From Haloferax volcanii DS2 (GTDB taxonomy: Archaea > Halobacteriota > Halobacteria > Halobacteriales > Haloferacaceae), in the NCBI RefSeq assembly GCF_000025685.1, contig NC_013967.1:1590001-1622000 (forward strand): a stretch of DNA of 32,000 bases, given 5' to 3'. Under the pieces are notes generated by a model, which was not told the origin of the DNA, searched no databases, and saw only the letters and a program-made list of their open reading frames with translations. The position numbers and the translations under genes are program-made. This document shows positions 4,699 through 29,595 of the stretch, piece after piece. Every line of letters begins with the position of its first letter. Positions within the stretch are counted from its first letter, which is position 1.

Positions 4699-4706
4699 TT
4701 GCGAAC

Positions 4707-7515: not shown

Positions 7516-7543
7516 TGCTCGCACGTGAATCGTACCTCCGGCC

Positions 7544-13382: not shown

Positions 13383-13459
13383 GCCAAGGTGGCAGAGTTC
13401 GGCCCAACGCATCCGCCTGCAGAGCGGAACCCCCGCCGGTTCAAATCCGGCCCTTGGCT
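13383..13459 (+). tRNA. tRNA-Cys (anticodon GCA), distal gene of the rRNA operon
   Basis: GCCAAGG...TCCGC CTGCAGA GCGGA...GCCGG TTCAAAT CCGGC CCTTGGC T. The 16S-Ala-23S-5S-Cys order is the classic haloarchaeal arrangement. The D-arm pairing is imperfect by eye. Confidence 0.85.
13449..13459 (+). repeat. Putative attL: last 11 nt of tRNA-Cys (GGCCCTTGGCT)
   Basis: The exact 11-mer recurs at 28737-28747. Confidence 0.55.
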
Positions 13460-13636
13460 CTCACACGTTTCTCTAAAGCCCAAGACGACTACGTCTTGGC
13501 TCGTTTCCTCGCTGATCTCAACTTCTCGGAGTTCAGACAGTGGGATCACGCTGGCGACCAACTCGTTTTGAAACAGAGTTCTTGGAATATTCCGCATACA
13601 CAAAGATTTATTCCGCTAGACGACCGTATTTCAGGT

Positions 13637-14212
13637 ATGGACGACCCGCGTACCGAACTCAAAGCAGATACCGACGAGCGTCGGGACCCGCCGGAGTTCG
13701 ACGATCTCGTCCCTCCCGAAGAACTAGTCGCTGGGGATCGCACTCGGGACGACTTCTTCGATGCCGTGCTCGGACTGGGCAGTCCCGCGACTGTGGGTGA
13801 GATCGCAGATCTCGCGGGACATGGGGTAGACGCTGCCCGTGAATATTTAGAGTGGTTCGAACGCATGGGTATCGTCACGCAGATCACCGATTCTCCTGCG
13901 ACGTACGAACGGAATCAGGAGTACCTGAATTGGCGGCGTGTCCAGCAGCTCCGGAACCAGTACGACGACGAGGAACTCCTCGCCTTCCTTGAAGACGCAG
14001 TGGAGCGTGATGAGTCGTTTGCGGAGAAGTTCGGTGTCGAATCTCCGGATGCGGTAGCGATCGCTGCGCACGCAACTGACACGGATCGTTCTGTCGAGAC
14101 AGTGTGGCGGGAGGTGTCAGCGTGGAAGACGACGCGCCGCCGAATCTCCCTCCTCGAACGGGCATTGCAGACTGACACGGACGGCACTGCCGGGCAGCGC
14201 ACTGTCGCATGA
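13637..14212 (+). CDS. winged-HTH DNA-binding protein (191 aa from the ATG at 13637); antitoxin-like partner
   Basis: SPATVGEIADLAGHGVDAAREYLEWFERMGIV is a TrmB/ArsR-like wHTH. The stop overlaps the next start (ATGA at 14209-14212). The track ORF's extension back to 13454 would overlap tRNA-Cys. Confidence 0.65.
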   Translation: MDDPRTELKADTDERRDPPEFDDLVPPEELVAGDRTRDDFFDAVLGLGSPATVGEIADLAGHGVDAAREYLEWFERMGIVTQITDSPATYERNQEYLNWRRVQQLRNQYDDEELLAFLEDAVERDESFAEKFGVESPDAVAIAAHATDTDRSVETVWREVSAWKTTRRRISLLERALQTDTDGTAGQRTVA

Positions 14213-14640
14213 GCGGCGGAAGGGACGGTGTCAGCGGTGCGCCGATCGACTTCGCCCGTCTGAACGTCGTCGCGGAGCGATTTGCTACCGACGATCGCTC
14301 CACTGAGATCGACATCCAACCAGAATTCGCACCCGATCGCATCGTCTGTCACTACGATTCCGGGTTCTATCCCCAGCGCGTGCAGAGTGCTCGCCTTGAG
14401 ATCGCGTGGCTCGAGAACGGGGACTTCTCGATACACTACCACGAAGAGCACCATGAGGGCGAGTTCGACCATCGATGGGATCGGCATCCCTCAGATCACA
14501 ACACGCGTGACCACGTTCACCCGGGTCCGGACGCACCGACACCCGGCGACGACGCGTCACATCCGGCGGAGTGGCGTGACGTGCTGTCGATGGTTCTCGG
14601 CGAGGTCGAAGCTCGACAACGAGCCTTCTGGACGGAGTGA
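14209..14640 (+). CDS. His-rich small protein, possibly TumE/DUF6516-like toxin (143 aa)
   Basis: The motif IHYHEEHHEGEFDHRWDRHPSDHNTRDHVHPGPD recalls the DUF6516 'hYH...RaDn.pH....PHH.H' pattern. That recall is low-certainty. It is translationally coupled to the wHTH gene. Confidence 0.6.
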   Translation: MSGGRDGVSGAPIDFARLNVVAERFATDDRSTEIDIQPEFAPDRIVCHYDSGFYPQRVQSARLEIAWLENGDFSIHYHEEHHEGEFDHRWDRHPSDHNTRDHVHPGPDAPTPGDDASHPAEWRDVLSMVLGEVEARQRAFWTE

Positions 14641-14647
14641 GTTCGTC

Positions 14648-15157
14648 TCAGATTTTCTCACGTCGTCGTCGCAGACTGTGACGGATCAGCAGGAGAAAGG
14701 TGCACAGTTCGGCCCGTCGCCGAGATTCGACAAAACGAAACACAACGTTGTAATGTCGAGTCCACGTTGAGAGGGTGCCGACCATCTGGTTCGGATGGAT
14801 GTCCCGCCACGCCATACAGCCCCGGTTCTGAAGGAGGGTTTCCCAGGATGTCTCCACGACGACCGCAAGGGGTTGTGGCCACTCGGTGGCCCGACGTAAC
14901 TCGGAACAGAATCGATCTCGCTCCCACGTGAGTGCGGTGAGGAAGTCGTCTCCGGACTTGCGTTCGACTGCGAACCGTGGGTGATAGGTGTCCGATTCCG
15001 GATCGTGCGTACAAGCAGTCGGGACAGCGTAGTCCCCGGTCGAGAGCGTCACGTCGCGCGTCTCTACTGCACACCTCTCGAACGTCCAGGTTCGCTGTTC
15101 GCGGGTATCTCGCAGTATCGTTGAGGGAATAGAACTACCGTGTCGTGTCTCGCCCAT
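14648..15157 (-). CDS. ERCC4 (XPF/Mus81-type) nuclease-domain-only protein (169 aa)
   Basis: The ERCC4 signature GDx(n)ERKx3D is present: VTLSTGDYAV...FAVERKSGDDFLTAL. No HhH or helicase region is attached. Confidence 0.75.
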   Translation of the reverse strand: MGETRHGSSIPSTILRDTREQRTWTFERCAVETRDVTLSTGDYAVPTACTHDPESDTYHPRFAVERKSGDDFLTALTWERDRFCSELRRATEWPQPLAVVVETSWETLLQNRGCMAWRDIHPNQMVGTLSTWTRHYNVVFRFVESRRRAELCTFLLLIRHSLRRRREKI

Positions 15158-15224
15158 CTATTGCGTTTGGTGCCGGTATCGGAAATAAACCCTCGCAGCG
15201 AGAGAACAAGGGGGATAACGGAGA

Positions 15225-17207
15225 TCAGAATCCGGCCTTCTCCAGTTCGTCGAGAAACGCCGGTCGGTTCGAGTGTTTGTCTTTCAGGAAATCGACGAAC
15301 TCTTCCAACCGCGCTTCGGGGACCAACCCCTGCATCTCTTCTAAGTGGTCGGCGATATCTCGGTAGTGTCGTCGACCGGTGTCGCCGGCGGCAAACGGGA
15401 CGAGCAGTTCCCGGTAGAGTTCGAAGTATTCGACCGGCGCCGTGGTTGCGACCGGGTCACGGTACTGGCGAACCGACGAGAGGTCTGCGTTCTCTTTCAG
15501 TTCGGCAAACGCTCTTTCGAGGTCGTCGTCGTGGACGTACAGCGCGACGAGGTCCTTTCGATCGTCCCGTTCGAAGTGCCGTTCGAATTCCCCGTAGATC
15601 GATTGCCACTCCTGATCGTCACAGATTGTCTTCAGGTCGTCGTACGCTGCCCACTCCGTGTGGTCAAGAAATAACTGCTTCAGGGTGGCACGGTACTCGT
15701 CCATATCTCGGTCCTCGTAGAGGTCGGCAGCGAGCCAACGGAGCTCACGAGCCGATCGGAACGTATGGATCCCGTCTTCGACGACTTCGATCGCACGGTT
15801 TTCGTTGCCTTCGTCGATCAGTCGTCGGGCGTACTCCTTGCAGAATCGCTTGCTCTCGAGGTAGATTTCCTCGTAGAGTTGCGAGAGGGCGTCTTCGTCG
15901 CCGAGTTCCTCGAGAATGTAGACGTAGGTCGAGAATATCCGCCGCTTCTGGAGTGACGACGATATGTCCGTGTCGGTCGTTCCTGATTTGGTCAGTTCGA
16001 CACGTGCAGTGTGTTTCTCGACGGTCGTCGGTTCATCGACGCGTAACTCCTCGAACGCGTCACCGACGAAGTACTCGAATTGCAGTGTCCCAACAGCCAA
16101 GTGTTCGACGTCGAGCGCTCCACCGGTGAAATCGTCGGTGCTGAGCGGACCATCGGTGAAATCGGATGCGTAGAGAACGTCGTCCGTCCGTTCGGGATGG
16201 TCTGTGGAACCGTCATCTCTCGCTGATCCGTCGGATGTATCGGCGCTGTCTTCAGTTTCATCTCGTCGGTCGTCCGTTTTCGAGGACAACTCACCCGACA
16301 GTACTGCGTCGAGTGTGACTCCGGACACGTGTGCGTCGAGTTGCTCCAGCCAGTATTCGAGGTCCGCGTCCTCCGTGCAGACCGTTCGGAGTGCGCCGTC
16401 GTAGTCGTCGCTGGCGAAGCCGTGGTCTGCCCCGACGAACTCCGCACAGAGATACTGGATGTACAGCTCCTTTCGCTCGTGCTCGAACTCCTGTTCTGCG
16501 ACCGTCTCTGCATATGCCTCGATAGCGCGTTCCAGTTCACGGCCGTAGTGCCCGCTGCTGTCGTCGACTCGGTCCAGATTCTCGCGTATCCCCTCGGAAA
16601 CCGCTCGATAGATATCCGTCGCCGTATCGACGTGGCCCCGTTCTCGATGTGTCTCCGCGAGGTCGGTGTACTGCGAGAAGTCGATGTGTGTGCCGTGTTC
16701 GACCATCCCTCGACGACTGACAGCGTCGTCGAACAGTCGATCGATCTCCTGCTTGTAGTCGTAGACTGTCTTGCCCGTGTCTTCGCCGACGAACGCGACG
16801 AACCGGTCACGGATATCCTGATCCGCCGCAACGATGTCGAGCAGAAACGCTCGGAGGTCCTCGGCTGTCGTCTGATCGACCAGCGATTCGATGTCGACCG
16901 TTTCATTTCGTTCGGGGTCAGTGTCACTCATCGTCTCGGGGTCTCGATCATCGACAGCGAGCAGGACCGCGACGACGTGTTTGCAGTCGCCCGCGTAGTC
17001 GTACGGACAACTGCAACGAGACCGGACCCCATCGTCTACGATATCGATAGCCACGTCGTAGTAGTTGGATCCCCGAACGGTGGCTCTGATTTCGCTGCCG
17101 TCGATATCCAGTTCTTGTATCCGATCTTGGTGATAATAGTTGGCACCACGCTCGAACGACTGTTCCGTACAGAGTGACCGTATTTCGTCGCGAGCCGGGT
17201 AGTCCAT
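15225..17207 (-). CDS. SWIM zinc-finger protein, long form, with an acidic linker and a helical-repeat C-terminal half (660 aa)
   Basis: SWIM CxCx(n)CxH is present: RSRCSCPYDYAGDCKHVVAVLL. The N-terminal ~260 aa are paralogous to the ORF at 23635-24432. The C-terminal half is alpha-helical and repeat-like, in the style of COG4715. Confidence 0.8.
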   Translation of the reverse strand: MDYPARDEIRSLCTEQSFERGANYYHQDRIQELDIDGSEIRATVRGSNYYDVAIDIVDDGVRSRCSCPYDYAGDCKHVVAVLLAVDDRDPETMSDTDPERNETVDIESLVDQTTAEDLRAFLLDIVAADQDIRDRFVAFVGEDTGKTVYDYKQEIDRLFDDAVSRRGMVEHGTHIDFSQYTDLAETHRERGHVDTATDIYRAVSEGIRENLDRVDDSSGHYGRELERAIEAYAETVAEQEFEHERKELYIQYLCAEFVGADHGFASDDYDGALRTVCTEDADLEYWLEQLDAHVSGVTLDAVLSGELSSKTDDRRDETEDSADTSDGSARDDGSTDHPERTDDVLYASDFTDGPLSTDDFTGGALDVEHLAVGTLQFEYFVGDAFEELRVDEPTTVEKHTARVELTKSGTTDTDISSSLQKRRIFSTYVYILEELGDEDALSQLYEEIYLESKRFCKEYARRLIDEGNENRAIEVVEDGIHTFRSARELRWLAADLYEDRDMDEYRATLKQLFLDHTEWAAYDDLKTICDDQEWQSIYGEFERHFERDDRKDLVALYVHDDDLERAFAELKENADLSSVRQYRDPVATTAPVEYFELYRELLVPFAAGDTGRRHYRDIADHLEEMQGLVPEARLEEFVDFLKDKHSNRPAFLDELEKAGF

Positions 17208-17340
17208 GTTTTGTGTGTGTGCCTACTGTGGTACCGACTGAAAACGTGACGCTGTGCCGTCACTGGGTGCTTGGTCGTTATGTCTCTCGGCCAGCGCCCG
17301 ACAGATTGAATCGTCCGACGGTCGTGCGTTCACGTACCGA

Positions 17341-18753
17341 ATGCGGATCGAGTTCGACGAGGGGACGCTCTTGCTCCACGATGCGCCCGAGACAGTTCCA
17401 CACGCAGAGTGGGACGACCGCGTCGATACTCACCGGGCACAGGCCTATCGATACCGGGCACTCCTCAAGTGGGCCGGACAGTGGAGCGATGGCGGTGGCC
17501 AGGCCACCCTCGACAGCGGATTCAGTCACGCTGTCGAAGACGCTGCCAGAGCGTACCCGGACCTCGCTCTGACACCCGCACTCCAGATCGAACCGCGTGA
17601 CTATCAGCAGACTGCACTCGGCTCGTGGGGTGCGCACGACCGACAGGGCACAGTAGTCCTTCCGACCGGCAGCGGGAAGACGTTCCTCGGATTGCAGGCT
17701 ATCGCCGACGCCGGTGTCAGCGCACTCGTCGTCACCCCGACGATCGATCTGATGAACCAGTGGCACGCCACGCTCACTCACGCGTTCGGTGAGCAACTCA
17801 CCGACGAGGTCGGCGTCCTCGGTGGCGGGTGTCACGATATCGGCGCGCCCACAGTCACTACCTACGACAGCGCCTACCGCTATATCGACGAGTACGGCGA
17901 TCGGTTCGGCCTGCTCATCACCGACGAAACCCACCATTTGGCGGCCGAGACGTACCTCCAAATTCCCGAGATGACGCTCGCGCCTTACCGCCTCGGATTG
18001 ACAGCGACCTACGAACGCGCTGACGGGCGAGAGACGCTACTCGAAGACCGTATGGGACCGGTTGTCTACGAGGAAGATGTCGACGCCCTCGCCGGAGATT
18101 TCCTCAGTGAGTACGAGACCATCCAGATGTCCGTCGATCTCACACCAGCGGAACGGACTGAATACGACGAGGAGTACCAGATCTACCGGGACTACGTCGA
18201 TAGTCACGACTTCGACCTCTGGAAAGAACAGGGCTACGCGGAGTTTCTCAAGCGGACGTCCTACGATCCACAGGGGCGACGTGCGCTCGTCGCAAAGCAA
18301 CGGGCCGAGCGCATCGCCCGGACGGCGTCGAAGAAACTCGATACGCTCGACAATCTGCTCAAACGTCACCACGACGATCGCGTCATCGTCTTCACCGCCA
18401 ACAACGACTTCGCCTACGACATCTCCCGGGAGTTCATTCTCCCGTGTATCACGCACCAGACCGACACCGACGAACGCACCGAGATTCTCGACCGGTTCCG
18501 CAGCGGTGAGTACTCCATGCTCGCCACCTCGCAGGTCCTCGACGAGGGCATCGACGTGCCAGCGGCCAACGTCGGCATCATCCTCTCCGGGAGCGCATCG
18601 AAACGACAGTACGCCCAACGACTCGGCCGGATCCTCCGTCCGACAGACGACCGCCAGCCAGCACGGCTCTACGAGATCATCACGACCGACACGATGGAGA
18701 CGTACGTCTCGCAGCGACGACGCGAGGGGGTGAGTAGCAGTGCTGACAGCTGA
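17341..18753 (+). CDS. xpb: archaeal XPB helicase, short canonical form (470 aa from the ATG at 17341)
   Basis: The N-terminus MRIEFDEGTLLL is DRD-like. Also seen: Walker A PTGSGKT, motif II LITDETHH, LTATYERADGRE at the RED-motif position, and motif VI-like QRLGRILR. The gene overlaps the downstream Bax1-like gene. Confidence 0.85.
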   Translation: MRIEFDEGTLLLHDAPETVPHAEWDDRVDTHRAQAYRYRALLKWAGQWSDGGGQATLDSGFSHAVEDAARAYPDLALTPALQIEPRDYQQTALGSWGAHDRQGTVVLPTGSGKTFLGLQAIADAGVSALVVTPTIDLMNQWHATLTHAFGEQLTDEVGVLGGGCHDIGAPTVTTYDSAYRYIDEYGDRFGLLITDETHHLAAETYLQIPEMTLAPYRLGLTATYERADGRETLLEDRMGPVVYEEDVDALAGDFLSEYETIQMSVDLTPAERTEYDEEYQIYRDYVDSHDFDLWKEQGYAEFLKRTSYDPQGRRALVAKQRAERIARTASKKLDTLDNLLKRHHDDRVIVFTANNDFAYDISREFILPCITHQTDTDERTEILDRFRSGEYSMLATSQVLDEGIDVPAANVGIILSGSASKRQYAQRLGRILRPTDDRQPARLYEIITTDTMETYVSQRRREGVSSSADS

Positions 18754-20092
18754 TCTCGCACGGTCGCGAACACGCGACGGCGCAGTCCGTCCTCTGTTCA
18801 TCGACATCTCCGACGAGCAGTACCGAGAGACGGCGGCCACGCTGATAGCGCTGTTCGAGGACCATCTCGGTGAACCGAAGGGAGAACTGGACGACGCCAT
18901 CGACGAACTGACCGTGGCCGATACCGACTACAAGATCGTCCAGGGGCTGGCGAAACTCCTCAGAGACGAGTGCGAGTTCGAGCAACAGGCGGCCGTTGAC
19001 CCACGCGAGATCCGCAAGCGACTGTTCGAGCGAGCCAACGATCGCTACCCGATCGTTCGCCAGCCCACACTCGGCGAAGACACGCAGAAACTGGAAGTCT
19101 ACAGCGCGGTCGCCGACGAGTTGGGCATCTCACTCGAGGAGTGTTACCGGGGTATGTACGCTGATCTGGAGGACAACAAACGGCTCGTCCGGTTCGGCGA
19201 CCAGTCGGTGCGCGATGACAGCGACGGACAGGAGTCCACGACGACAACGACGAAACTGACGGGAAATAGCAAGCAGGCGTACGATCAGCGCGACCAGACG
19301 GTCGACTGGCTGCTGGCTCGCTACAACCTCGCGCTGGCACAGGCCGTGCTCTACGACGCCTCGAAGATGCACTTTCGGGTGTGGGAGCACTTCGGAACGG
19401 TGTTCAGTTACATGAAGCTGTTCGGATTGATGCACCGGATCTACCCCATCGACGAGGACGGCAACCGCGTCGCAAGCACGGACGTGGCAGCGGGCTACGA
19501 GGCGGAACTCGACGGGCCAGTCTCGCTGTTTCGGCAATCACAAAAGTACGGCATCCGGATGGCGAACTTCCTGCCCGCGCTCCCGCTGTGTGACCGCTGG
19601 GAGATGCGCGCGGAGATTCTCGACGAGGGGTCGGCCGGCGACACCAAACAGTTCACACTCGACTACACTGATGGGCTCGTCTCCCACTACAGCACCGGCC
19701 AGCGGTTCGACAGCGACGTCGAGCGAACGCTCGCCCGAAAGTGGGAGCGGTCGACCACAGAGTGGGACCTCCAGCGCGAAGACGATGTGTTCGATCTCGG
19801 CTCCGAAGTGATGATCCCCGATTTCGCCATCGAACATCCCGACGGACGGCGGGCAATCATGGAGATCGTCGGGTTCTGGACGCCGGAGTACCTGGCGTCG
19901 AAACTGGCGAAGATACGGCAGGTCGAGACCCACAACTTCGTGTTGGCGGTCTCGGAACGACTGGACTGTTCCGACGAGGACTTCGGGGACGTTGCGGATC
20001 GCGTACTGTGGTTCAAAACCGGGATGCACGTCTACGACGTGGTCGAACTGGCCGAGGAGTACGCCTCTCCGGTCGAAACAGACCCCGACTGA
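18740..20092 (+). CDS. bax1: Bax1 (DUF790) nuclease, partner of XPB (450 aa, GTG start)
   Basis: The N-terminus LTADLARSRTRDGAVRPLF is typical of DUF790. The C-terminal PD-(D/E)xK-like core is MIPDFAIEH...MEIVGFWTPEYL. There is a 14-nt overlap with xpb. Confidence 0.75.
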   Translation: MLTADLARSRTRDGAVRPLFIDISDEQYRETAATLIALFEDHLGEPKGELDDAIDELTVADTDYKIVQGLAKLLRDECEFEQQAAVDPREIRKRLFERANDRYPIVRQPTLGEDTQKLEVYSAVADELGISLEECYRGMYADLEDNKRLVRFGDQSVRDDSDGQESTTTTTKLTGNSKQAYDQRDQTVDWLLARYNLALAQAVLYDASKMHFRVWEHFGTVFSYMKLFGLMHRIYPIDEDGNRVASTDVAAGYEAELDGPVSLFRQSQKYGIRMANFLPALPLCDRWEMRAEILDEGSAGDTKQFTLDYTDGLVSHYSTGQRFDSDVERTLARKWERSTTEWDLQREDDVFDLGSEVMIPDFAIEHPDGRRAIMEIVGFWTPEYLASKLAKIRQVETHNFVLAVSERLDCSDEDFGDVADRVLWFKTGMHVYDVVELAEEYASPVETDPD

Positions 20093-20099
20093 TCGGCAC

Positions 20100-20468
20100 T
20101 CAGCCCAAGCGGCCGCCGTCGCCGTTCCAGTAGTGCCAGTCATCGACTGCCTCCCGGGTATCCTGATCTACGTCGAGCACTTCGAGTTGTGACAACGGGA
20201 CACCGAATTCCCTGTCCTTCCACTCCACGAGGACGAACATCTCACGACTGCTGACGACTTCGTCCGTCATTCCGACGACAGGCACTTCTTCGCCCTCACG
20301 CAGCGGCGAGATCGTTCGCTCCTCGATACACCGCGCCTGAAACGGGAACGTCATCTCGCGTTCGAGGTGATAGCACCAGCTGATCGCTTGCTCGTCGGCG
20401 GTGTACGCGTCGGTGAGTATCTCCCTCCGAATGCGTTTGTCCCGCTCTTCGTCTGTCTCCCGTGTCAT
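20100..20468 (-). CDS. small acidic hypothetical protein (122 aa), last gene of the minus-strand cluster
   Basis: ATGA start/stop overlap with the upstream gene at 20465-20468. The C-terminal motif is VPLSQLEVLDVDQDTREAVDDWHYW. No family is assigned with confidence. Confidence 0.6.
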   Translation of the reverse strand: MTRETDEERDKRIRREILTDAYTADEQAISWCYHLEREMTFPFQARCIEERTISPLREGEEVPVVGMTDEVVSSREMFVLVEWKDREFGVPLSQLEVLDVDQDTREAVDDWHYWNGDGGRLG

Positions 20469-21235
20469 GGTCGTTTCTGCTTGACGATTGCGGCCGTGTC
20501 GGTCGACGTGATCACGTCGCCGTCGAGCACCTCGTCGATTTCGTCTGGTTCGTAGACATCCTTGACGATGCAGTAGTAATGCGAGGGCGTCCCGAAGTCG
20601 TAGACGAGACTGAGTCTGTCACCCTCTCGAAGTCTGGCCCGCTCGGCGACATCCGCAATCGTCATCTCGCCCGCTTTCGTGTACGTCCGGTCGCCTGCTT
20701 CCTCGTACTGGCGGTCAGGAAGCACGTTGAGACTGGAATCCAGATACTCGTCTTCGAGGCCGTACATCCGGAGGTGGAAATCGTCGAGCGTCGAGAACCG
20801 GCACACGAGTCTGTCCAGTTCCGCCATCGTCGTCTCCGGTCTCACGACGATATCGTACCACTCCTCCCGCGCACGCCCTTTCTGCTTCCACCGGAGCCGA
20901 TACCCGACAGTCCCGATCTGCTCGGACAGGTCGTCAGCATCCTGCTCTTTCCCCACTGCTTCACGCGTGTTCGACCAGCAATACGAGCAGATCTCGTCAG
21001 GTGCATCGCCTTCGAAGCCCGCCTTGTTGATGTCGTGGTGGGCGGCAAACTCCGACAACGAGACGTGCTGCGGACGCGGGTGGCGGTTCCCTCGACTACA
21101 CATCATCTCCCCGGGACCTCCAATGCCGAGCGAGAAGCGAGAGTCCGTCTCCGATTGGTCGGCGTCCGTATCGATGATGTGCGCGACGGTTCCGGTTCCG
21201 ATCTCGATCACGAATCGGTCGGTTGGCTCGCTCAT
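20465..21235 (-). CDS. MM3350-like / pRiA4b ORF-3-like (PF07929-type) protein with a Cys-containing N-terminal extension (256 aa)
   Basis: YRLRWKQ...EWYDIVVRPETTMAELDRLVCRFSTLDDFHLRMY and LSLVYDFGTPSHYYCIV match the two hallmark blocks of the family (Y.l.V.L..iWR.i.v....L..LH..I...fgW...HLh.F and Y.YDFGD.W.H.i). Confidence 0.65.
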   Translation of the reverse strand: MSEPTDRFVIEIGTGTVAHIIDTDADQSETDSRFSLGIGGPGEMMCSRGNRHPRPQHVSLSEFAAHHDINKAGFEGDAPDEICSYCWSNTREAVGKEQDADDLSEQIGTVGYRLRWKQKGRAREEWYDIVVRPETTMAELDRLVCRFSTLDDFHLRMYGLEDEYLDSSLNVLPDRQYEEAGDRTYTKAGEMTIADVAERARLREGDRLSLVYDFGTPSHYYCIVKDVYEPDEIDEVLDGDVITSTDTAAIVKQKRP

Positions 21236-21241
21236 CGTTGC

Positions 21242-21874
21242 TCACCGGTACTGGATGTAGATGCCATGGTCGCGATACAGGTCGTGGAACGCGACGAACC
21301 GCTGTCGGGAGGCCGCTTTCGGTTCGTCTGGCTCTACTCGATGCTCGTGTTCTTCGAGAAGGTGGGTTTTCTCCTCGCCGGGGAACGGAAACGAGACGCC
21401 CGAGGTTGTAGTAAACTCGTCGTACCGAACGGGTCTGAAAAACAGCACTGTCCCCGGCTCCGCGGTTCGGCTGAGGTTGATATCCAGCAGCGTGTGTTCT
21501 TCGCGGCCGTCGAGCAGATCGGTTACCGTCAGACGGGGGTCTGAGTCGCTGATGGACTCGACCTCGAACAGCGAGGGGTCGGCGTCGACGGTGGCTTCGA
21601 GAATGTCCCGTTCGGTTTCGCTCTCCCAGCGCTCCGCTTCGAGGTATCGCTCCGCCGCAGTGGTCCCGTCCCGGTGGTATTCGTACAGCGCGAACTCGAA
21701 GTGGGCCGCCATCTGGGATTCGAACTCGTAGGCCAGGTTCAGCCCGTCGAATTCGATGTCCAGCTCGGACGCGGTTTCTACGATCAGTTCCCGGTCAGAG
21801 TACGCCTCGAGGATGTCGCTGTTCAATTGCGTCCCGACTTCCCGATAGGTCTTGTACTGGTCGGTGTCGGTCAC
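21242..21874 (-). CDS. hypothetical acidic protein (210 aa)
   Basis: Clean ORF, co-directional, only 6 nt from the next gene. No motif recognised. Confidence 0.6.
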   Translation of the reverse strand: MTDTDQYKTYREVGTQLNSDILEAYSDRELIVETASELDIEFDGLNLAYEFESQMAAHFEFALYEYHRDGTTAAERYLEAERWESETERDILEATVDADPSLFEVESISDSDPRLTVTDLLDGREEHTLLDINLSRTAEPGTVLFFRPVRYDEFTTTSGVSFPFPGEEKTHLLEEHEHRVEPDEPKAASRQRFVAFHDLYRDHGIYIQYR

Positions 21875-21933
21875 TACGAGAGTGTATCATCTGGGCGGTA
21901 CCAGTATCTTGTGGCGCCGGACGTACAGTGGGA

Positions 21934-22920
21934 TTACAGATCCATATCGGCAAACGTCCATTCCTCTCCCAGTTGTCGGTGGAACCCCTCGGATTCGATC
22001 GTGTTCCGCAACTGCGATCTGACTGTCTCGTCGAACTCGAACCGGTCGTTCAATTCATCGCGCATGTCCCAGTAACGAGGGACCTTCGGAGCGGAATCGC
22101 GGTCGACCTCGGACAGGATCGACGCCAGCAGGTATCGATCCTCGTAGTCGATCCGCTCGTCACTCAGCAACGCATCCATCAAGTCGGCTGCAGCGTGCTG
22201 ATCGGCGTAGAACGCATGCGGGAGCACGCCCCGAACCCAGAATAGTTCCTCGGTAACAGCATCCTGGAGTTGCTCTTCGACCGAGTGCTCGGGATAGCCG
22301 ATTCCCCATCCGTACGTGAACGATTCTTCCCAACTCGTGTCTTTATTTGAATCCCAGAACGAACCGAGATACGCCAGCGCCTCGGCGGGGACTGCCCCGA
22401 CGCCGTCGCGCCGTCGCGTCCGGACGACGTGGCGTCCGACTGCGTTCTCGATGACCGGGCTCACGAAGGGTTCGTCGTCGCTCTCACGCGAATATGCGTC
22501 GATAAGATCTGTGAGAAACGGCCATCCTTCACGCGTAGCGATTTCGTCGAGCGCCTCTGCTGCCGGTTCGTAAAACGCCCAGAATATCCCGCGATACGTG
22601 TCGTCGTTCTCGGTTTGGTGGTATTCCTGAAGTTCTCGTTCGTAGTGAGCGAGCATCTGGAATGCGGCGTCAGCGTCCCCTTTCGCAGCCGCTTCGAGAT
22701 TGGTTTTCAACGTTCCACTCGCGGCTTCCAGCCCTCGTTTCTCGCGCTCTTGATTCCGCCGCTCCATGTCGGCGTCGAGAGCGTCCGAGATCGAATCGAG
22801 GAAACTGTCGAACGACGACAGCGGGTTCGACTCCGCTGGCTCTTCAGCAGGACAGTCGTGTAGACGCAGGCGACTCAACGTAGTGAAACTCTCACCGCAG
22901 GCATCGCACTCGTGTGGCAT
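21934..22920 (-). CDS. hypothetical protein with an N-terminal C2H2/C2HC-type zinc finger (328 aa)
   Basis: N-terminus MPHECDACGESFTTLSRLRLHDC (Cx2Cx12HxC). The rest is acidic and helical with no recognised domain. Confidence 0.65.
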   Translation of the reverse strand: MPHECDACGESFTTLSRLRLHDCPAEEPAESNPLSSFDSFLDSISDALDADMERRNQEREKRGLEAASGTLKTNLEAAAKGDADAAFQMLAHYERELQEYHQTENDDTYRGIFWAFYEPAAEALDEIATREGWPFLTDLIDAYSRESDDEPFVSPVIENAVGRHVVRTRRRDGVGAVPAEALAYLGSFWDSNKDTSWEESFTYGWGIGYPEHSVEEQLQDAVTEELFWVRGVLPHAFYADQHAAADLMDALLSDERIDYEDRYLLASILSEVDRDSAPKVPRYWDMRDELNDRFEFDETVRSQLRNTIESEGFHRQLGEEWTFADMDL

Positions 22921-22995
22921 CGTTCGTATTCGTCTGGACGAGGGGGAGACACATCTACGTTCGGGGCTGTTCTGGCTGTCTCGAACGCGCAGATA

Positions 22996-23553
22996 TTACT
23001 CGTCGAGATCAGGGTATTGAGACGGTGCTGTGCCTTGCTCGTCGACGACGACGGGATCACCATCCATCGATCCCGTTCGCGTGTCTTGCAGTTCGATGTA
23101 GTGTTCCCAGCTGTCGCCCATGTCGAACGTGTAGGAGAGCGCGCCCAGATCTTCCGGATCGAGTTCGTCGATCGTCGTCTCAGCGGCGTTGCCTTCCATC
23201 GGTGGGTTCGACTGGAGTTCGCGGAACCGTTCTTTGGCTTCCTCGGACGCGTCGTCCGGCACGGCCTGCTCGATGAAGCGATCGATCTCTTCGTCGTCCA
23301 TTGTGCGCCAGCTCGGACCGCCATCGTAGAGCATCGGATGGACGTAGCTCCGGAGCGCGATGCCGTTGTCATCGCGTGTGATGAACTCGTAGGCGTGGCT
23401 CTCCCAGCGATCGAACGCCTGGAAGATCGCCTCGTGGAACGTAGCGAGCGTGTGTGACCCGTCGATCTCGAGGTCGTGCCAGACCTCCTCGTCGGGTTCG
23501 AACCCCAGCGGTGGATGCGGCTGGAGCCAGACGCGGAACACGTAGGTCGTCAT
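22996..23553 (-). CDS. MM3350-like / pRiA4b ORF-3-like protein (185 aa)
   Basis: YVFRVWL...EVWHDLEIDGSHTLATFHEAIFQAFDRWESHAYEF and LSYTFDMGDSWEHYIEL are close to the family consensus. Confidence 0.75.
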   Translation of the reverse strand: MTTYVFRVWLQPHPPLGFEPDEEVWHDLEIDGSHTLATFHEAIFQAFDRWESHAYEFITRDDNGIALRSYVHPMLYDGGPSWRTMDDEEIDRFIEQAVPDDASEEAKERFRELQSNPPMEGNAAETTIDELDPEDLGALSYTFDMGDSWEHYIELQDTRTGSMDGDPVVVDEQGTAPSQYPDLDE

Positions 23554-23634
23554 GCCTCGTCTAACGAGGGTCAGTGTTGTAGATTTTTCGCGTAGACAAT
23601 AGATATCCGCTGATGAATCGATTCGCTGACTTCC

Positions 23635-24432
23635 TCACTCGTATCGCTCCTCCAGATCGTCGAGTGCGCGCCGGAACTGCTCGTCGTTGATCCGCGGCTC
23701 TGCCGTTGCCCGCGCCTCAAGCACGCCAGCGTACGTGTCGAACTCTTCGGGAGTCGGATTGGTCGCGAGGACGCAGTCGGCGTAGCCGTCGAGTGCGGTC
23801 TGGATCGCCTTCGCGTAGTGGTCGTAGGCACCGTCGATCCAGTTGTATTTCTCGTCGATCTCCTCGAACACCGCTCGGTAGACGGTCGCAGCGGCCAGAT
23901 ACCGCTCGCGGTCACGGTACTGCTCGGCGATCTCCAAAAACCGGGAGAAGTCGATGGCCTCGAACACGACCGGGTCGGCGTGTTGCTCGAACAACTGCGC
24001 GATTTCCTCGCGGTACTCCTCGACCGATCTGTGGTCGTCGCCAAAGCGTGCGAGAAACTGCTCGCGCAACTCCGGATGTTCGGCGAGGGCGTCACGGGCG
24101 AACCCACGCAGGTCCTCGGCCGACACGTCGTCGATGACTGCCTCGACACGCTCGCTCTCGTCCTGTGGCGGGCTGGCGGCGATGTCCAGCAGTACTGCGA
24201 CGACGTGCTTGCAGTCGCCGCCACCGTCGTACGGACAGGTACACCGCGCATCGATACTGCGCCCGCCGAACTCGACAGTCACGTCGTACAACTTCGAACC
24301 GCTGATGGTGGCCGTAACGAGTTCGCCAAATCGGTCGAGTTGCTGAATGCGTCCCTCGTCACGGTAGTTGACTCCGCGTTCGAACACCGCATCGGTGCTT
24401 CTGTTCTTGACCCTTTCCCTATCGATGTTCAT
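23635..24432 (-). CDS. SWIM zinc-finger protein, short form (265 aa from the ATG at 24432)
   Basis: ARCTCPYDGGGDCKHVVAVLL is a SWIM motif. The protein is collinear with the N-terminal part of the 660-aa SWIM protein. It lies 32 nt downstream of the helicase gene. Confidence 0.8.
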   Translation of the reverse strand: MNIDRERVKNRSTDAVFERGVNYRDEGRIQQLDRFGELVTATISGSKLYDVTVEFGGRSIDARCTCPYDGGGDCKHVVAVLLDIAASPPQDESERVEAVIDDVSAEDLRGFARDALAEHPELREQFLARFGDDHRSVEEYREEIAQLFEQHADPVVFEAIDFSRFLEIAEQYRDRERYLAAATVYRAVFEEIDEKYNWIDGAYDHYAKAIQTALDGYADCVLATNPTPEEFDTYAGVLEARATAEPRINDEQFRRALDDLEERYE

Positions 24433-24464
24433 GACTCGTCTTTCGACGCAGACGTAAAATTCGA

Positions 24465-26873
24465 TTACGGTGTCGAATCGGCGGCCTGCCGGCTCGGATC
24501 GGCCAGCGCCATCGTGAGCGTCGCCGCGAGGCGTTTGTCGAGCGGTTCGTTCGCTCGGCCACAGTGCGGTGATTGAATACACGCCGGACAGCCGTCGGAA
24601 CAGCCACAATCGGCGAGCAGTTCCCACGTGTGCTGGAAGAGTCCCTCGATGTGGTCGTATCCGTTGCGGGCGAGTCCGACACCACCGCGGTAACTGTCGT
24701 ACATGAATAGCGCGCTCGTCTCGGTCTGTGGGTGTTCGGCCGTCGAGACGCTTCCAACGTCACGCCGGTCACAAAGGATGACCAGCGGGAATGTGGCGAC
24801 GAGGGCGTGCTGGACGGCGTGGAGGCCACCCTCGAACGACCCGGACATCGTCTGCATCAGGCTTTCCAGTCCCGGTGGGAGCGTCACGTACAGTGCACGG
24901 GTCGAGAGCGTCGTTTCGGGCAGCTTGAGTGCCTCCTCGGTCATGATCTCACCAGTTCGGTGGTCGCGTCGCTGGAAGCCGGTGACCTGCTTCCGTCGCG
25001 TCACGTCCGCGAAGTGAACGGTCACGTCGTCGCGGGTCGCCAGTGGCTTGGTAGCGCTGTCCTCCTCGATAGTCATCGACTCCTCGTACTGCACGCGCGT
25101 CTGGTGGTCGCTGTCCGTTTCGGCGAGCCACGCCACGTCGCGGTCTAGGTCGAGTGACTGGACTTCGTAGTTCTGCCCCTGATGGTGGTAGATCGCACCT
25201 GGATGTACGTCCCGCAGTGCCGCGTTGAGCGGCAACTTCCCGAGTTCGTCAGTCGCTCCCCCTCGAACCCGGAGGGTGACCATGCGTTCTGTGATGGTTC
25301 GGAGCCCCTGTTCGTACGGATTCACCGTTCGTCCGCTGGCGGTGCGTCGCCATTCGAGTCCTTGATCTGTCTGTCGCCGGGTCAATTCGCCGTCGTTTGT
25401 GAGGGTACTGACGATGTCGGGGAAAGTAGAACCGAAATACGCCTCGTCGGCGGTTCGGAGCGGTCCTTCCATGGCCGCGGCGTGTGTATGCAGTTTCAGG
25501 AGATGCGAATTCGAGGGATTGGCGACGGCACGCTCGGGCGTCTGCTCGAACAGTTCGTTAGGATGCTTGATAACGTACTGGTCGAGTTGATCCTCGCTGG
25601 CGACGAGCGCGACGAGGCTCGGGTCGGTCCCACGGCCAGCGCGGCCCGCGCGCTGGAACGTTGCCATCTGTGTTCCAGGGTACCCGTCTAACAGGACGGC
25701 GTCGAGGCTGCCGATGTCGACGCCGAGTTCCAGCGCGCTCGTGCTCCAGACGCCGGCACAGTCCCCGGAGTGCAGTGCAGTCTCGATTGTCGCCCGCCGG
25801 TCATCGCGCAGTCCTGCGTGGTACGCAGTTACGCTCTGGGCGATGTCGGCCCTCCCGCGCTCTGCGAGTGTATCGCTGCTGATGGTGGCGTACCGCTCTG
25901 CCGTCTGCCTCGCGCGCGTGAACGCCACTGTCTGATACCCCTGCATCACGAGGTCGACGAACAGTCGCATGGTTTCCCCGTGGTTGGAGCGGCGCTGTCC
26001 ACCACCGGCCGGTGCATCGCCCTCGTCGTATTCCGGTGGTTGCCAGAACAGCCAGTGTGTCGGACCCGTTTCACTGGTGTCCTCGTCGACGAGTTCGAAC
26101 GAGTCGGTCGGTTGGCCGGCGATCGTCGCTGCGTGCTCCCGGGGATTGCCGATCGTCGCGGAACAGCACACGAACTGCGGGTCGGCACCGAGACGGTCAC
26201 AGATCCGCGCCAGCCGGCGGCAGACGAGACCGACGTGACTGCCGAAGACACCGCGGTACTCGTGGACTTCGTCGACGACGACGAGTTCCAACGACTCGAA
26301 GAACGCTCGCCAGAGGTCGCCCGCGTGACTGAGCAGTCCACAGTGGAGCATATCCGGCGTCGTCAAGACGATGGACGGGTCTTCGTCACGTGCCTGCTGG
26401 CGCTCGTCCGAAGAGAGCGAGCCTGTGTACTGAGTCACGGAGAGATCGTCGAACGGTGCAGCGAAATCAGACAGCGTCGTCTCCTGGTCGTTGATCAGCG
26501 CGACCTGCGGACCGATATACAGCGTCCGTCCGTCGTACTTGTGAGCGCGCTCGATGGCGGGAATCGTGTACGCGAGGCTCTTTCCGCTTGCTGTCGGCGT
26601 CGCGAGGACGACGTTCTGCCCGTTGCGAACCGCTTCGATGGCGTCGGTCTGGTGTGCGTAGAGTCCGTCGATGCCCCGGTTAGCAAGGAGGTCTGCGAGC
26701 CGGCGCTCCATCTCACAGGATCGAGTGATGGGCCTACGAGCGGGAATCTCCCGCTGGAACTGGATCTGATCGCGGTAGTACTCGCGGTTCTGTACCCACT
26801 CGACGAACTCGTTCACTACTCCGTGGATACTGCGTGCCCGCATATAGGGATATGGCCCTCGACTTGTCGCCAT
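24465..26873 (-). CDS. COG1205-type DEAD/DEAH (DEVH) SF2 helicase with a C-terminal DUF1998/MZB Cys cluster (MrfA/Hrq1-like, 802 aa)
   Basis: Motifs seen: Walker A ATPTASGKS, motif II VVVDEVHEY, CSATIGNP and motif VI QRAGRAGRG. The C-terminus is DCGCSDGCPACIQSPHCGRANEPLDK. Confidence 0.85.
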   Translation of the reverse strand: MATSRGPYPYMRARSIHGVVNEFVEWVQNREYYRDQIQFQREIPARRPITRSCEMERRLADLLANRGIDGLYAHQTDAIEAVRNGQNVVLATPTASGKSLAYTIPAIERAHKYDGRTLYIGPQVALINDQETTLSDFAAPFDDLSVTQYTGSLSSDERQQARDEDPSIVLTTPDMLHCGLLSHAGDLWRAFFESLELVVVDEVHEYRGVFGSHVGLVCRRLARICDRLGADPQFVCCSATIGNPREHAATIAGQPTDSFELVDEDTSETGPTHWLFWQPPEYDEGDAPAGGGQRRSNHGETMRLFVDLVMQGYQTVAFTRARQTAERYATISSDTLAERGRADIAQSVTAYHAGLRDDRRATIETALHSGDCAGVWSTSALELGVDIGSLDAVLLDGYPGTQMATFQRAGRAGRGTDPSLVALVASEDQLDQYVIKHPNELFEQTPERAVANPSNSHLLKLHTHAAAMEGPLRTADEAYFGSTFPDIVSTLTNDGELTRRQTDQGLEWRRTASGRTVNPYEQGLRTITERMVTLRVRGGATDELGKLPLNAALRDVHPGAIYHHQGQNYEVQSLDLDRDVAWLAETDSDHQTRVQYEESMTIEEDSATKPLATRDDVTVHFADVTRRKQVTGFQRRDHRTGEIMTEEALKLPETTLSTRALYVTLPPGLESLMQTMSGSFEGGLHAVQHALVATFPLVILCDRRDVGSVSTAEHPQTETSALFMYDSYRGGVGLARNGYDHIEGLFQHTWELLADCGCSDGCPACIQSPHCGRANEPLDKRLAATLTMALADPSRQAADSTP

Positions 26874-26924
26874 CGGCGAACGAGGTTCTTATCTAGGTGC
26901 TCGGACAACAATCTCGTGAGCGCA

Positions 26925-27608
26925 ATGGTTGCTCCGATTTCGCACGCGGACGAACTTGACCCGTTTATCGCTCTGGAACTTCCCCCGGGCTGGGTTCGTG
27001 GCCTTCTCGAACCGCTGTCGGGGTCGTTCCGATCGGACGACCCGCTTGAGAGCGCGCTGTTCGAGGCACTCACGGGATCGAAGCCTGACTCGGCACCAAC
27101 CTCGAACACAGTCATCTTCACGTATCTCGCCGGCTACGATCCCGGTATCGACCGGCCGATTGACAGCGAGCGCCAGCTATCGATCAAGTACGTAGCCGAG
27201 CAGGATGCGTTCGGAGTCAGAGCAGCGTTCGACGAAGGTCTGGTCGAGACTGTTCCAGACGCTCGTGACTGGCTGGAACGGGCCATGCCACGGGTCGAAC
27301 GTGAGATGGACCATCGACGCCGCTTCTGGGTGGCGCTCTCGGATATCCACGGTCTCGGGCAGCAAGGGATTGACAATCTGAACGGGGAATACGAGTCTTT
27401 GGATGCAGTCGCTTCGGCGACCGAAACCGAACTGGCCGACATTCCGTACGTCACTGACGACTTGGCGCCCGAGGTAGTGGAAGCTGCCGAGCAGTTCGAC
27501 GGGACAGTCCCGGATGCTCCTGGCGACCGGGCGGCCGACTGTGCTGACGATCCGCTCGTCGTCGATACTAGCGACCTGCGTCCATTCAGTGACCTCTTCG
27601 AGAACTGA
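26925..27608 (+). CDS. helix-hairpin-helix (HhH)2-containing protein (227 aa)
   Basis: LSDIHGLGQQGIDNL and LADIPYVTDDLAPEVV form two HhH-like motifs. This is only the last 227 codons of the 612-aa track ORF; the upstream part is antisense to the helicase gene. Confidence 0.6.
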   Translation: MVAPISHADELDPFIALELPPGWVRGLLEPLSGSFRSDDPLESALFEALTGSKPDSAPTSNTVIFTYLAGYDPGIDRPIDSERQLSIKYVAEQDAFGVRAAFDEGLVETVPDARDWLERAMPRVEREMDHRRRFWVALSDIHGLGQQGIDNLNGEYESLDAVASATETELADIPYVTDDLAPEVVEAAEQFDGTVPDAPGDRAADCADDPLVVDTSDLRPFSDLFEN

Positions 27609-27656
27609 ACGCCGACGGTCCTGAACCTTTTCAATCAAGCAGTCGTACCCGTTTCT

Positions 27657-28628
27657 ATGCCGTTTAGCGTCAGCTGGCACACGCTGCTCGAGGAGCTCGA
27701 CGAGTTGCCCGACGATGCTGAACTCGTCACACCGCTCTCGCACGATACGTTCCGCGTCACGGACGTACAGGAACACCGCGTTGTCGTCACGTTCGACGAC
27801 ACGGGAGAGCGTCGCCCGCTCCAGCGCGATCAGTTCGAGACCCTTCACCGCCGGATCCAGGACTCGAACGGTGCGTTCGAACTCGACCGGCTCCCACCCG
27901 ATGCCGATCCCTATCCGGCAGTGCTGAGCCTGCATCCGCGATTCGAGGTGGACGAAGAGCAGGGTAGTATCGCCGAAACGGAAGCAGAGACTGGTACCCA
28001 ACTCCTGAGTGGCGAATCAGCACCTGCCGAGAGCGACCGTGTCGAACCTGACGAGATCGACGTGTATTCGGATGCCCTTCTCCTCATCGATGCGCTGGAA
28101 CGTCAGGACGTCTCCGATCTCACAGCACTGGAGACGGAAGCACTGGTGAACCTCTACACGCTCTGTTCGGATGTCCAGCGGAACGCGGACGAACTCCGCC
28201 AGGACATCGCCGACGTGTTACTCGATCGACTCCACCACGATCAGCCAGTCCACGGGCAGTACGGCTCGGTTCAGCGAACGTCGCGTCGTAACCGCTCGTT
28301 GAAAGACGAGGAAGACGTACTGGCCACACTGGAAGGCGCAGGGATCGACCGCGAGCGTGTCATGAGCGTCGACTCGAAGAAAGTGAACGAGGCACTGGAA
28401 GTAACGGAACTCTCGGAAACGGATGTCTACGAGGTTGACGAGAGCGAATACGTCCGGAAGGCCGAAGTAGACGAGGATGTCAAAGAGTCACGACTCCAGG
28501 GATTGAAAGACCGGCTTGCGGCCAGTAGCGACGCAGAATCCGACGAACTCAGACAGGAGATCGAGGCCCTCGAAGAACGTATCGACGACCTTACGAGTTT
28601 CAGTACGGGGACACAGATGCAGGGGTAG
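27657..28628 (+). CDS. hypothetical acidic protein with a coiled-coil-like C-terminus (323 aa)
   Basis: Clean ORF with strongly acidic composition. The C-terminus SDELRQEIEALEERIDDL is heptad-like. No tyrosine- or serine-recombinase motifs. Confidence 0.6.
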   Translation: MPFSVSWHTLLEELDELPDDAELVTPLSHDTFRVTDVQEHRVVVTFDDTGERRPLQRDQFETLHRRIQDSNGAFELDRLPPDADPYPAVLSLHPRFEVDEEQGSIAETEAETGTQLLSGESAPAESDRVEPDEIDVYSDALLLIDALERQDVSDLTALETEALVNLYTLCSDVQRNADELRQDIADVLLDRLHHDQPVHGQYGSVQRTSRRNRSLKDEEDVLATLEGAGIDRERVMSVDSKKVNEALEVTELSETDVYEVDESEYVRKAEVDEDVKESRLQGLKDRLAASSDAESDELRQEIEALEERIDDLTSFSTGTQMQG

Positions 28629-28736
28629 ACGAGCGTTGTATTTCATAAAACAGTGTTTCAGGGCCTGAAATATATCTCACATCCAATATTAACTCATAGT
28701 TAGTGGTTCTAATATATAAATTACTGCCTAATAGCT

Positions 28737-28747
28737 GGCCCTTGGCT
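28737..28747 (+). repeat. Putative attR: displaced copy of the tRNA-Cys 3' end (GGCCCTTGGCT)
   Basis: Exact match to 13449-13459. It is followed by TTTCCTTTC, an oligo-T tract of the kind that terminates archaeal tRNA/rRNA transcripts. Confidence 0.55.
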
Positions 28748-29595
28748 TTTCCTTTCGGACGTTACGCCCCGGAGCGACGCGTCCCGGCATCGAATCAGTG
28801 AGTGGCGATGCTATCGCACGAGTCGTGTTTCGAGGGCGTCGACCGCGTTATCGTCGCCCAGTTCGCGTACGACCTCAAGGGCGTCGAGTGGCGTTTTCCC
28901 CGCTCGAACCCTTGGTTCGACGGACGAAACACACGTAGTAGCGCGCCGGAGTTAGGCGAGCGCCTCGGTTGCGTTCTCGACTCCGCGGAGTGACCCGGCG
29001 CGCTGTCGGTGACATCGACCTTCGAGCACCGCCGTCGGTACGGACTCGGCTGCCGTCGTGAGATACGAGCGTCCGCCGTCGGTTTTTCCGACTGCACACG
29101 TCTCTGAGAGTCATCTTCGTGAGTCCCTTCTGCTCATCACCGTGTCGCCGCTCGTTCGCGGGTCGTCGAACATCTCTTGAGCACGTCCAGCGTCGCGGGC
29201 GGCGCGAAACGGGGAGACGAACCGTCGGCCCGTCAGCGGCGTGGTGTAGTCGCAGCCATCGAGGACGAGGGCCGCGGCGGTCAGGTCACGGTGTCGGAAC
29301 ACGCGCCGTCGAGCGCGTCAAGGAAGTCGAACCGGAGGCGAGCCCCCACCGCTCTATGGCGTAGTCTCCTCGCGCGTCACGGCCTCCGCCCGGTTCGGCG
29401 TCGCCGGACGGCTGGTCCGTAACTCGTGACACGCCCGTTCGGCCGACAGATTCAAAAAGTCGCGTCAATCCGCGACCGCGAGTGCCCGCCGGCCCACTGT
29501 ATTGAGGGTGAGAGTCGCCGCCGACGGTCGCGCGACGCGGTGACACGCTCCGAGGAAAAGTAATCGTTATACGCCGCGTGGCCCATGCCGAAACC

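Follow-up and report, generated by a model that had tools for sequence, protein, structure and literature searches.

Integrated islands that lie between attL and attR sites at a tRNA-type target and carry no recombinase of their own include the cis-mobilizable elements (CIMEs) of streptococci and similar non-autonomous islands bordered by the att sites of an ICE (PMC5704250; ICEberg, PMC6323972). Here, we describe an island with the same layout in the haloarchaeon Haloferax volcanii DS2, at the 3' terminus of the tRNA-Cys gene that closes an rRNA operon. The window, that is, the whole stretch of DNA that was analysed, comprises the 32,000 nucleotides at positions 1,590,001-1,622,000 of the chromosome, and window positions are used throughout. 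As in CIMEs, the att sites of the island are related to those of autonomous, integrase-bearing elements at the same target. The host differs from that of CIMEs in being an archaeon, the helper candidates have a size of ~75 kb, and accretion in tandem with a helper was not observed; the lineage is moreover old and diversified over several families rather than a local deletion derivative. In the reading that we consider reasonably probable, this is a non-autonomous, integrase-less island that was placed by a tyrosine integrase of a family named IntC here, acting in trans, and that is now stranded.

Several haloarchaeal and other archaeal elements can be set beside it. The SNJ2-type modules of haloarchaeal pleolipoviruses and other mobile elements use tyrosine integrases and target the 3'-distal part of tRNA genes with a 14-bp core (11 bp here), and their integrase subgroups are tied to specific tRNAs (PMC5861418); tRNA-Cys does not occur in the text of that paper. 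SNJ2 has its att core close to the 3' end of the integrase gene and requires Orf2 and Orf3 for integration (PMC5861418), whereas the IntC core lies ~50 nt upstream of the start codon. IntC is placed among the tyrosine integrases by its PF00589 match, and is compared here with the SNJ2-type integrases as described in the literature. IGE1-3 of Hfx. gibbonsii (PMC7921747) and Halfvol1-4 of Hfx. volcanii (PMC12091111) resemble the present island in being low in GC and in sitting at tRNA 3' ends between terminal repeats that partly duplicate the tRNA. Unlike it, they encode XerC/D-type integrases next to the tRNA, and their sites are tRNA-Pro, tRNA-Ala and tRNA-Arg; Halfvol1-4 use these three, with Halfvol4 having no flanking tRNA (PMC12091111). 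The island is not among the four integrated elements of that 2025 provirus paper, and tRNA-Cys is absent from its text.

The ‘suicidal’ elements of SSV type in Crenarchaeota and Thermococcales are likewise integrated in tRNA genes and show no intact integrase afterwards. Their integrase is split into two end fragments, whereas the arms of the present island are non-coding, AT-rich and have stops in all frames. A split integrase was rejected for this locus: the border open reading frames (ORFs) encode a DUF7342 protein and a 323-aa protein, and no ORF crosses the reconstructed attP. In the literature searched, we found no description of this island or its family, nor of any archaeal integration system of the CIME or satellite kind. 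DS2 is the main genetic model for haloarchaea, and this 15.3-kb island in it has been overlooked.

The target gene, tRNA-Cys(GCA), is the last gene of a complete 16S-tRNA-Ala-23S-5S operon. Its sequence is 100% identical in 11 other Haloferax species, and it is intact in DS2 despite the insertion, with its 3' end regenerated by the direct repeat. The repeat is the 11-bp core GGCCCTTGGCT, which takes in the T stem's final 3 nt, the 3' strand of the acceptor and the discriminator base. An earlier note on this DNA, made from the letters alone, had pointed out that this sequence recurs exactly at the far end of the segment. The recurrence was confirmed: there is no other match in the window with up to one mismatch, and the two copies are the only ones on either strand of the 4.01-Mb genome, which has five replicons (2,847,757, 85,092, 6,359, 437,906 and 635,786 bp). 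By itself, an 11-mer match is weak evidence, and in a control the reversed pattern occurred six times genome-wide. The repeat is significant because both copies fall exactly on the breakpoints of an indel.

The breakpoints were located by searching 40 relatives for homologues of the right flank. In seven Haloferax species, alignment shows the tRNA-Cys gene joined directly to the homologue of window position 28748 onward; in each of the seven, the empty site reads ...GGCCCTTGGCT followed by TTTTC... and the native trailer. This sets the insertion at exactly 13460-28736, which is equivalent to 13449-28736. The synteny breakpoints in these species, a comparison that the earlier note had proposed, coincide exactly with 13459/13460 and 28747/28748, and the precise empty sites and intact tRNA support its suggestion that an element integrated into the tRNA and regenerated the 3' end. 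Its identification of TTTCCTTTC, just 3' of the distal copy, as the original end of the operon was also right: this is the native trailer, because the empty sites read GGCT followed immediately by TTTTC. A chance repeat is ruled out by the match between breakpoints and empty sites. As a block, the island was not found in any of the 20 other Haloferax species genomes searched, which hold gene-level paralogues only.

Related islands do occur in other Halobacteria. They were sought by pattern searches, each of which sampled ~395 Halobacteria species genomes (counts include DS2), and by querying public genomes for the left junction as the core plus CTCACACGTTTC. The left arm of the island was present in 12 of 395 genomes and a right arm of the DS2-island type in 7, and the pattern GCCT-N7-core was found in 16 of 395, corresponding to three arm types and one possible chance hit. 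Islands of type A have a common gene set, consisting of an ERCC4 nuclease, two SWIM proteins, an XPB-Bax1 pair, an MrfA-like helicase and a terminal 323-aa gene, and occupy tRNA-Cys, with the 11-bp repeat of DS2, in genera that include Halapricum, Halorhabdus and a Halorubrum-like one. They lie between two exact 11-mers, and their genes have 70-98% amino-acid identity with those of the DS2 island. The repeats are spaced 13,865 bp apart in Halapricum hydrolyticum (G305), 13,838 bp in Halorhabdus tiamatea (G117), 12,122 bp in G176 (genus g21) and 14,280 bp in G087 (genus g48); the G176 island has empty sites in four congeners. A single island end is visible in G321, in G215 (Natronorubrum) and in G291 (Halorubrum sp. 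N11), the last being cut off by a TnpB-type insertion sequence.

Type B comprises mini-islands of 1.9-2.2 kb (G110, G344, G396 and G175), each with a homologue of the 265-aa SWIM protein of DS2 (SWIM-265), a PIN protein and an antitoxin. In Halorientalis marina, which the left-junction query recovered, the tRNA-Cys gene again closes an rRNA operon. The same ~33 nt come next, and the 11-mer appears again 1,062 bp downstream; the cargo is a PIN-like protein (a weak, sub-threshold Pfam match) and a UPF0175 antitoxin. In every host, the right junction falls exactly after the 11-mer, and it was also recovered from two metagenome contigs, where another sequence lies downstream. The host flanks are mutually unrelated and differ from genus to genus. 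Such exact junctions with such unrelated flanks mean that insertion at these 11 bp has happened many times independently.

The ends of these islands are conserved as well. The DS2 left arm is identical at 31-41 of 46 nt to arms of types A, B and C in 10 other genomes. Within it, the block CCTAAAGCCCAAGACGAC is nearly invariant, and the hairpin that the earlier note had described is present in DS2 and kept in every type. The note had also interpreted positions 13495-13510 as a partial repeat copy and possible scar of an older event. That interpretation is ruled out: the stretch is the 3' arm of the hairpin and, since the hairpin is conserved in all family members examined, it belongs to the element's own end and is not a relic. 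The right arm has conserved blocks AATATTAAC, CTAATATATAAAA and GCCTRWTAGCT. Averaged over pairs, identity reaches 0.78 in the left arm and 0.70 in the right arm, compared with 0.53 for third codon positions in the neighbouring 323-aa gene, and the distal 11-mer, which has no tRNA function, is exact in every copy. Because the ends are kept above the synonymous-site level while the cargo is swapped, they resemble recombination sites. To judge from these alignments, the arms are functional and under selective constraint. We also considered whether the left arm is simply a native, vertically inherited trailer of tRNA-Cys. This was judged unlikely, as the arm has a patchy distribution (its 33-mer is present in 3/49, 3/9 and 0/20 species of individual genera) and co-occurs with distal cores.

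The third arm type (GCCTTAAAGCC plus the core) is accompanied by IntC. In G039, G401 and G336, which represent three families, IntC has 434-436 aa, is 88-90% identical between genomes, and starts ~50 nt from the distal core, reading inward. The distance from the tRNA-Cys core to the distal core on one contig is 73.8 kb in G401 and 76.1 kb in G336. Six further genes of the close IntC clade lie at the same distance from a core, so that all nine examined start ~50 nt away; two of the nine adjoin a variant core, GGCCTAGGCT. The close clade (at least 77% identity) is present in 11 of 395 genomes, and a 21-kb island at tRNA-Cys in another Haloferax species (G012) carries, at its distal end, a homologue with 48% identity that has become a pseudogene. 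The likeness to CIMEs can be made specific here, since the island and the IntC elements have an identical core, left arms of the same family (31-35 of 46 nt identical between G401 or G336 and H. volcanii) and a core-proximal right-arm motif that matches at 8 of 11 nt. At two loci (L153 and L157, in G142 and G277), IntC adjoins the variant core CGGCCTAGGCT in place of GGCCCTTGGCT, which suggests that the att core may co-vary with a variant tRNA-Cys acceptor stem in that genus.

The DS2 island itself has the insertion layout and empty sites of a tRNA island of a tyrosine integrase but no integrase inside. The earlier note had seen no tyrosine or serine recombinase and no transposase, and a fuller search agrees: Pfam scans of all sizeable ORFs found no recombinase or transposase in the island, and six-frame genome searches with PF00589 and PF00239 gave no match within C1:1603449-1618747. 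At the eight family sites checked, no PF00589 gene was found nearby. Two other element types were rejected for this locus. A transposon or casposon does not fit, as the ends CTCACACG... and ...CTAATAGCT are not mutual inverted repeats and the Pfam scans contain no transposase or Cas1. Neither does an integron-like cassette array, as no integrase gene lies upstream, where the rRNA operon and the TBP, regulator and Orc1/Cdc6 genes are found.

Mobilisation in trans by an IntC-type integrase is the most economical mechanism for such an island, and the most likely one. The island would have entered the tRNA-Cys 3' end by site-specific recombination across the core. It is one member of a family of tRNA-Cys-specific integrative elements of Halobacteria, in which only the core, a ~45-nt left arm with its hairpin and a conserved right arm are universal. 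Three classes share these ends: IntC elements of ~74-76 kb, helicase/nuclease islands of 12-15 kb, and mini-islands of 1-2 kb. The largest would be autonomous by virtue of the 435-aa IntC that they encode, and the other two classes have no recombinase. For these, an IntC-type integrase would be supplied in trans, either from an element resident in the same cell or in the course of cell fusion. The island, as a circle with attP in the order right arm, core, left arm, would then recombine with attB in tRNA-Cys, restoring the tRNA and duplicating the core. The right-end layout is the same in deeply diverged copies, which argues that the integrase-less form has been propagated as such. The DS2 island would now be stranded because the strain has no close IntC homologue: the H. 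volcanii genome gave no IntC match at E <=1e-60, and its best match is 25% identical.

There is precedent for action in trans, since SNJ2-type integrases of other genera excise an integrase-deleted SNJ2 provirus in Natrinema (PMC5861418). The earlier note had called the island either immobilised or mobilised in trans; we arrive at the same reading and have found the probable cognate integrase family in other genomes. A broader proposal, to which we give about even chances, is a satellite-helper system in which ancient, diversified integrase-less islands parasitise the IntC of large tRNA-Cys-specific elements and move between families. On that proposal, the cargos would include XPB-Bax1/SWIM/MrfA modules and toxin-antitoxin pairs, and the landing site would always be one and the same 11-bp stretch where the rRNA operon ends. 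In the genomes sampled, this type of island is recurrent: its elements are defined by their ends alone, have interchangeable cargo and would move with no recombinase of their own.

Some points count against placement by IntC. IntC is a predicted helper, with putative activity on these sites. The right arms of the integrase-less islands and of the IntC elements are alike only over ~11 nt next to the core (GCCTAATAGCT versus GCCTTAAAGCC). With ~395 of the class's species genomes in each search, no sampled genome combined a close-clade IntC with an integrase-less island, and helper and island were nowhere seen in tandem. A circular (attP) form of the integrase-less island was likewise not found in plasmid or viral collections or in the sampled genomes; more specifically, viral contigs gave no match to the attP junction or to the two arms, the plasmid collection, queried with the two arms, yielded nothing beyond a degenerate remnant of the left arm on pHsi204, and the island was not found in the phage collection. 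Because no circular form, tandem array or co-residence was found, the trans-mobilisation step is one that we infer.

Other explanations differ mainly in where the recombinase would come from. The island might be autonomous, with an unrecognised recombinase that could be either the 323-aa protein beside attR or a SWIM protein. Neither has a known function, the 323-aa gene always adjoins the right arm in large islands, and SWIM-265 homologues are found in both large and 2-kb islands, being the sole gene common to the large and most of the mini-islands. We nevertheless think this unlikely, as the Halorientalis mini-island has the same core and arms with only PIN and antitoxin genes, and homologues of the 323-aa protein are abundant on plasmids that lack the tRNA-Cys site. 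Furthermore, the AlphaFold model of the 323-aa protein shows an N-terminal winged-helix-like domain with helical and beta regions, for which Foldseek and VIA-align found weak winged-helix matches (best Z ~5) and no match to a recombinase or nuclease fold. The SWIM-265 model has a pLDDT of 38 and is unusable, so it neither supports nor excludes a recombinase role. A small serine recombinase could instead be the helper in place of IntC. One genome (G045) has a 282-aa PF00239 resolvase at a distance of 1.5 kb from a core and left arm to which no full tRNA-Cys is attached, and orthologues with 54-64% identity are present in three island hosts (G087, G176 and G040). This linkage is a single instance, however, with no core or arm within 1.5 kb of the orthologues in other hosts, and H. 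volcanii, G305 and G117 have only 30% relatives. An 11-bp block of identity at a tRNA 3' end is also typical of tyrosine integrases, and of all the explanations considered here we regard a serine helper as the least probable.

Alternatively, no site-specific recombinase need have been involved. Haloarchaea fuse, recombine between species and use microhomology-mediated repair. After inter-species cell fusion, homologous recombination through the rRNA operon and tRNA-Cys on the left and microhomology at the distal 11-mer on the right (resembling microhomology-mediated end joining, MMEJ, or synthesis-dependent strand annealing, SDSA) would give the same product, and the left flank is indeed a 5-kb rRNA operon conserved across genera. 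We give this little weight. It leaves unexplained both the conservation of the ~45-nt and ~65-nt arms above the synonymous level across unrelated cargos and the presence of an identical core and left arm in integrase-bearing elements. It is also possible that each island lost its own integrase after integration, in which case these would be independently decayed relics rather than a hitchhiking lineage. Decay does occur, as seen in the truncation of the G291 island by a TnpB-type insertion sequence and the integrase pseudogene of G012, and in several genomes a left arm persists without a distal repeat. However, at least 10 integrase-less islands in at least 6 genera have the same right-end layout (323-aa gene or toxin-antitoxin pair, then the conserved arm and core), with deeply diverged gene sequences and exact cores, so that independent decay seems improbable. 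Placement in trans by an IntC-type integrase is the reading that we retain.

The features of the window are collected in Table 1. ORFs were annotated with Pfam (all sizeable ORFs), and PADLOC and NCBIfam were also used for the gene run.

Table 1. Features of the island and its surroundings, in window positions
Feature	Position	Strand	Basis
Orc1/Cdc6 gene	4707-5912		
HVO_A0261-type regulator	6084-6869		
TBP gene	6955-7602		
tRNA-Cys(GCA), integration target with 3' end regenerated by the element	13383-13459 (or 13460)	+	ARAGORN, Rfam
attL core GGCCCTTGGCT	13449-13459	+	
Inserted island, 15,277 bp between repeats (15,288 bp from repeat start to repeat start)	13460-28736	.	empty sites, composition
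Left arm, with hairpin CCAAGACG-ACTA-CGTCTTGG at 13480-13499	13460-13505	+	
DUF7342 winged-helix protein	13637-14212	+	Pfam
143-aa partner, overlapping the DUF7342 gene	14209-14640	+	
ERCC4-domain nuclease	14648-15157	-	Pfam, PADLOC
660-aa SWIM zinc-finger protein	15225-17207	-	Pfam, PADLOC
XPB-type helicase	17254-18753	+	Pfam
Bax1/DUF790 nuclease	18740-20092	+	Pfam
CcbP-like protein	20100-20468	-	
Second PRiA4-like protein	20465-21235	-	
210-aa ORF	21242-21874	-	
328-aa ORF	21934-22920	-	
PRiA4_ORF3-like protein	22996-23553	-	
265-aa SWIM protein (SWIM-265)	23635-24432	-	
MrfA/DUF1998-type helicase	24465-26873	-	
Terminal 323-aa gene (PF25943 / ‘DUF2800’ in sources)	27657-28628	+	
Right arm, AT-rich, CAATATTAAC ... 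TTCTAATATATAAA ... CTGCCTAATAGCT	28671-28736	+	alignment of nine right ends
attR core, second GGCCCTTGGCT copy	28737-28747	+	
Native tRNA-Cys trailer TTTCCTTTCGG..., displaced 15.3 kb from the tRNA	28748-28770	+	contiguous with tRNA-Cys in seven congeners

Many of the island genes have relatives on plasmids. The DUF7342 gene and its 143-aa partner are kept together on megaplasmids of other Haloferax species and other genera, with remoter homologues inside integrase-bearing elements. The ERCC4 nuclease and the 660-aa SWIM protein are also found in the related islands. XPB-Bax1 and the 323-aa gene, which is always the final gene before the right arm in large islands, have paralogues on the 636-kb replicon of DS2 and are common on haloarchaeal plasmids. 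At one place on that replicon (G000:C5:446935-450751), the XPB-Bax1 paralogue (78% nucleotide identity) adjoins the paralogue of the 323-aa gene (67%), and the two modules therefore also travel together on plasmids. Seven genes on the minus strand form a co-directional run (20100-26873), which keeps its synteny both in the related islands and on plasmid pHsi204 of Haloarcula sinaiiensis. That plasmid retains much of the island gene order, riddled with insertion sequences, beside its left-arm remnant. Judged by these matches, the modules of the island are plasmid-like.

As a whole, the island supplies the strain's accessory XPB-Bax1 pair, two SWIM proteins, ERCC4 nuclease and MrfA-like helicase, and studies of DNA repair or defence in DS2 should treat these genes as horizontally acquired cargo. 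One ORF is probably not a gene as drawn: in ORF 27177-27935 on the minus strand, the conserved N-terminal third is simply the antisense of the 323-aa gene at its 5' end.

Island composition was compared with that of same-size windows. The GC content of the island is 60.2%, against a chromosome mean of 66.6% and 68.4% in the right flank. By GC, the island ranks in the lowest 4.8% of these windows, and by tetranucleotide distance in the top 4.2%; in composition, the 636-kb replicon is nearest to it. The drop in GC that the earlier note had estimated by hand is thus real when computed over windows, though smaller than its counts implied. The left flank is also low in GC, with 56% in the rRNA operon and 59.5% in the origin region, for causes unrelated to the island.

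Further loci recovered in the searches have the same arms in other settings. In G174 (L087), the same left arm is followed by unrelated cargo, namely an AbiEi/AbiEii pair and an AspBHI-like HNH restriction enzyme, and G193 (L148) has a type A right arm without the usual genes; with these two arrangements, the exchange of cargo therefore exceeds the two main island types. At L083, L084 and L089 (G349, G132 and G161), a conserved 87-aa protein with an acidic tail (...ESDxDSx) directly follows the left arm, with no distal repeat. These loci may be the remnant end of another island type. In a metagenome contig (L069:150-560), two long, GC-rich, hairpin-like repeats of the CCCCRCCCTCAAC...GGGTGGGG type are found immediately inward of a type A right arm, at the position taken by the 323-aa gene in other islands.

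Two observations concern the att site itself. In G045 (L085:10486-13171), the core and left arm follow a degenerate ~22-nt fragment of the tRNA-Cys 3' end rather than a full tRNA; this stretch lies 205 nt after a tRNA-Arg gene and 1.5 kb from the serine recombinase mentioned above. This may be an attP-like or captured site. In a Haloferax genome (G013, L062:254-470) and in G396 (L141:17790-17912), the last 24 nt of tRNA-Cys, CCGGTTCAAATCCGGCCCTTGGCT, occur as tandem copies 93-112 bp apart directly 3' of the tRNA, and every spacer contains a motif of the GATTTGAAYC type. They look like scars or mini-cassettes of a second type of tRNA-Cys-targeting element with a longer att site.

To the left of the rRNA operon, at 3500-8000, there is another stretch of low GC (56-61%), which contains the Orc1/Cdc6, regulator and TBP genes listed in Table 1. 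Hartman et al. (2010) described a codon-usage island, ‘GI-f’, with oriC2, orc5 and an rRNA operon, and ascribed its bias to the origin or to rRNA transcription (PMC2841640). Given the Orc1/Cdc6 gene beside the rRNA operon, GI-f appears to be the region of the present window, and the 3500-8000 stretch is probably the replication-origin region named in that paper rather than foreign DNA.

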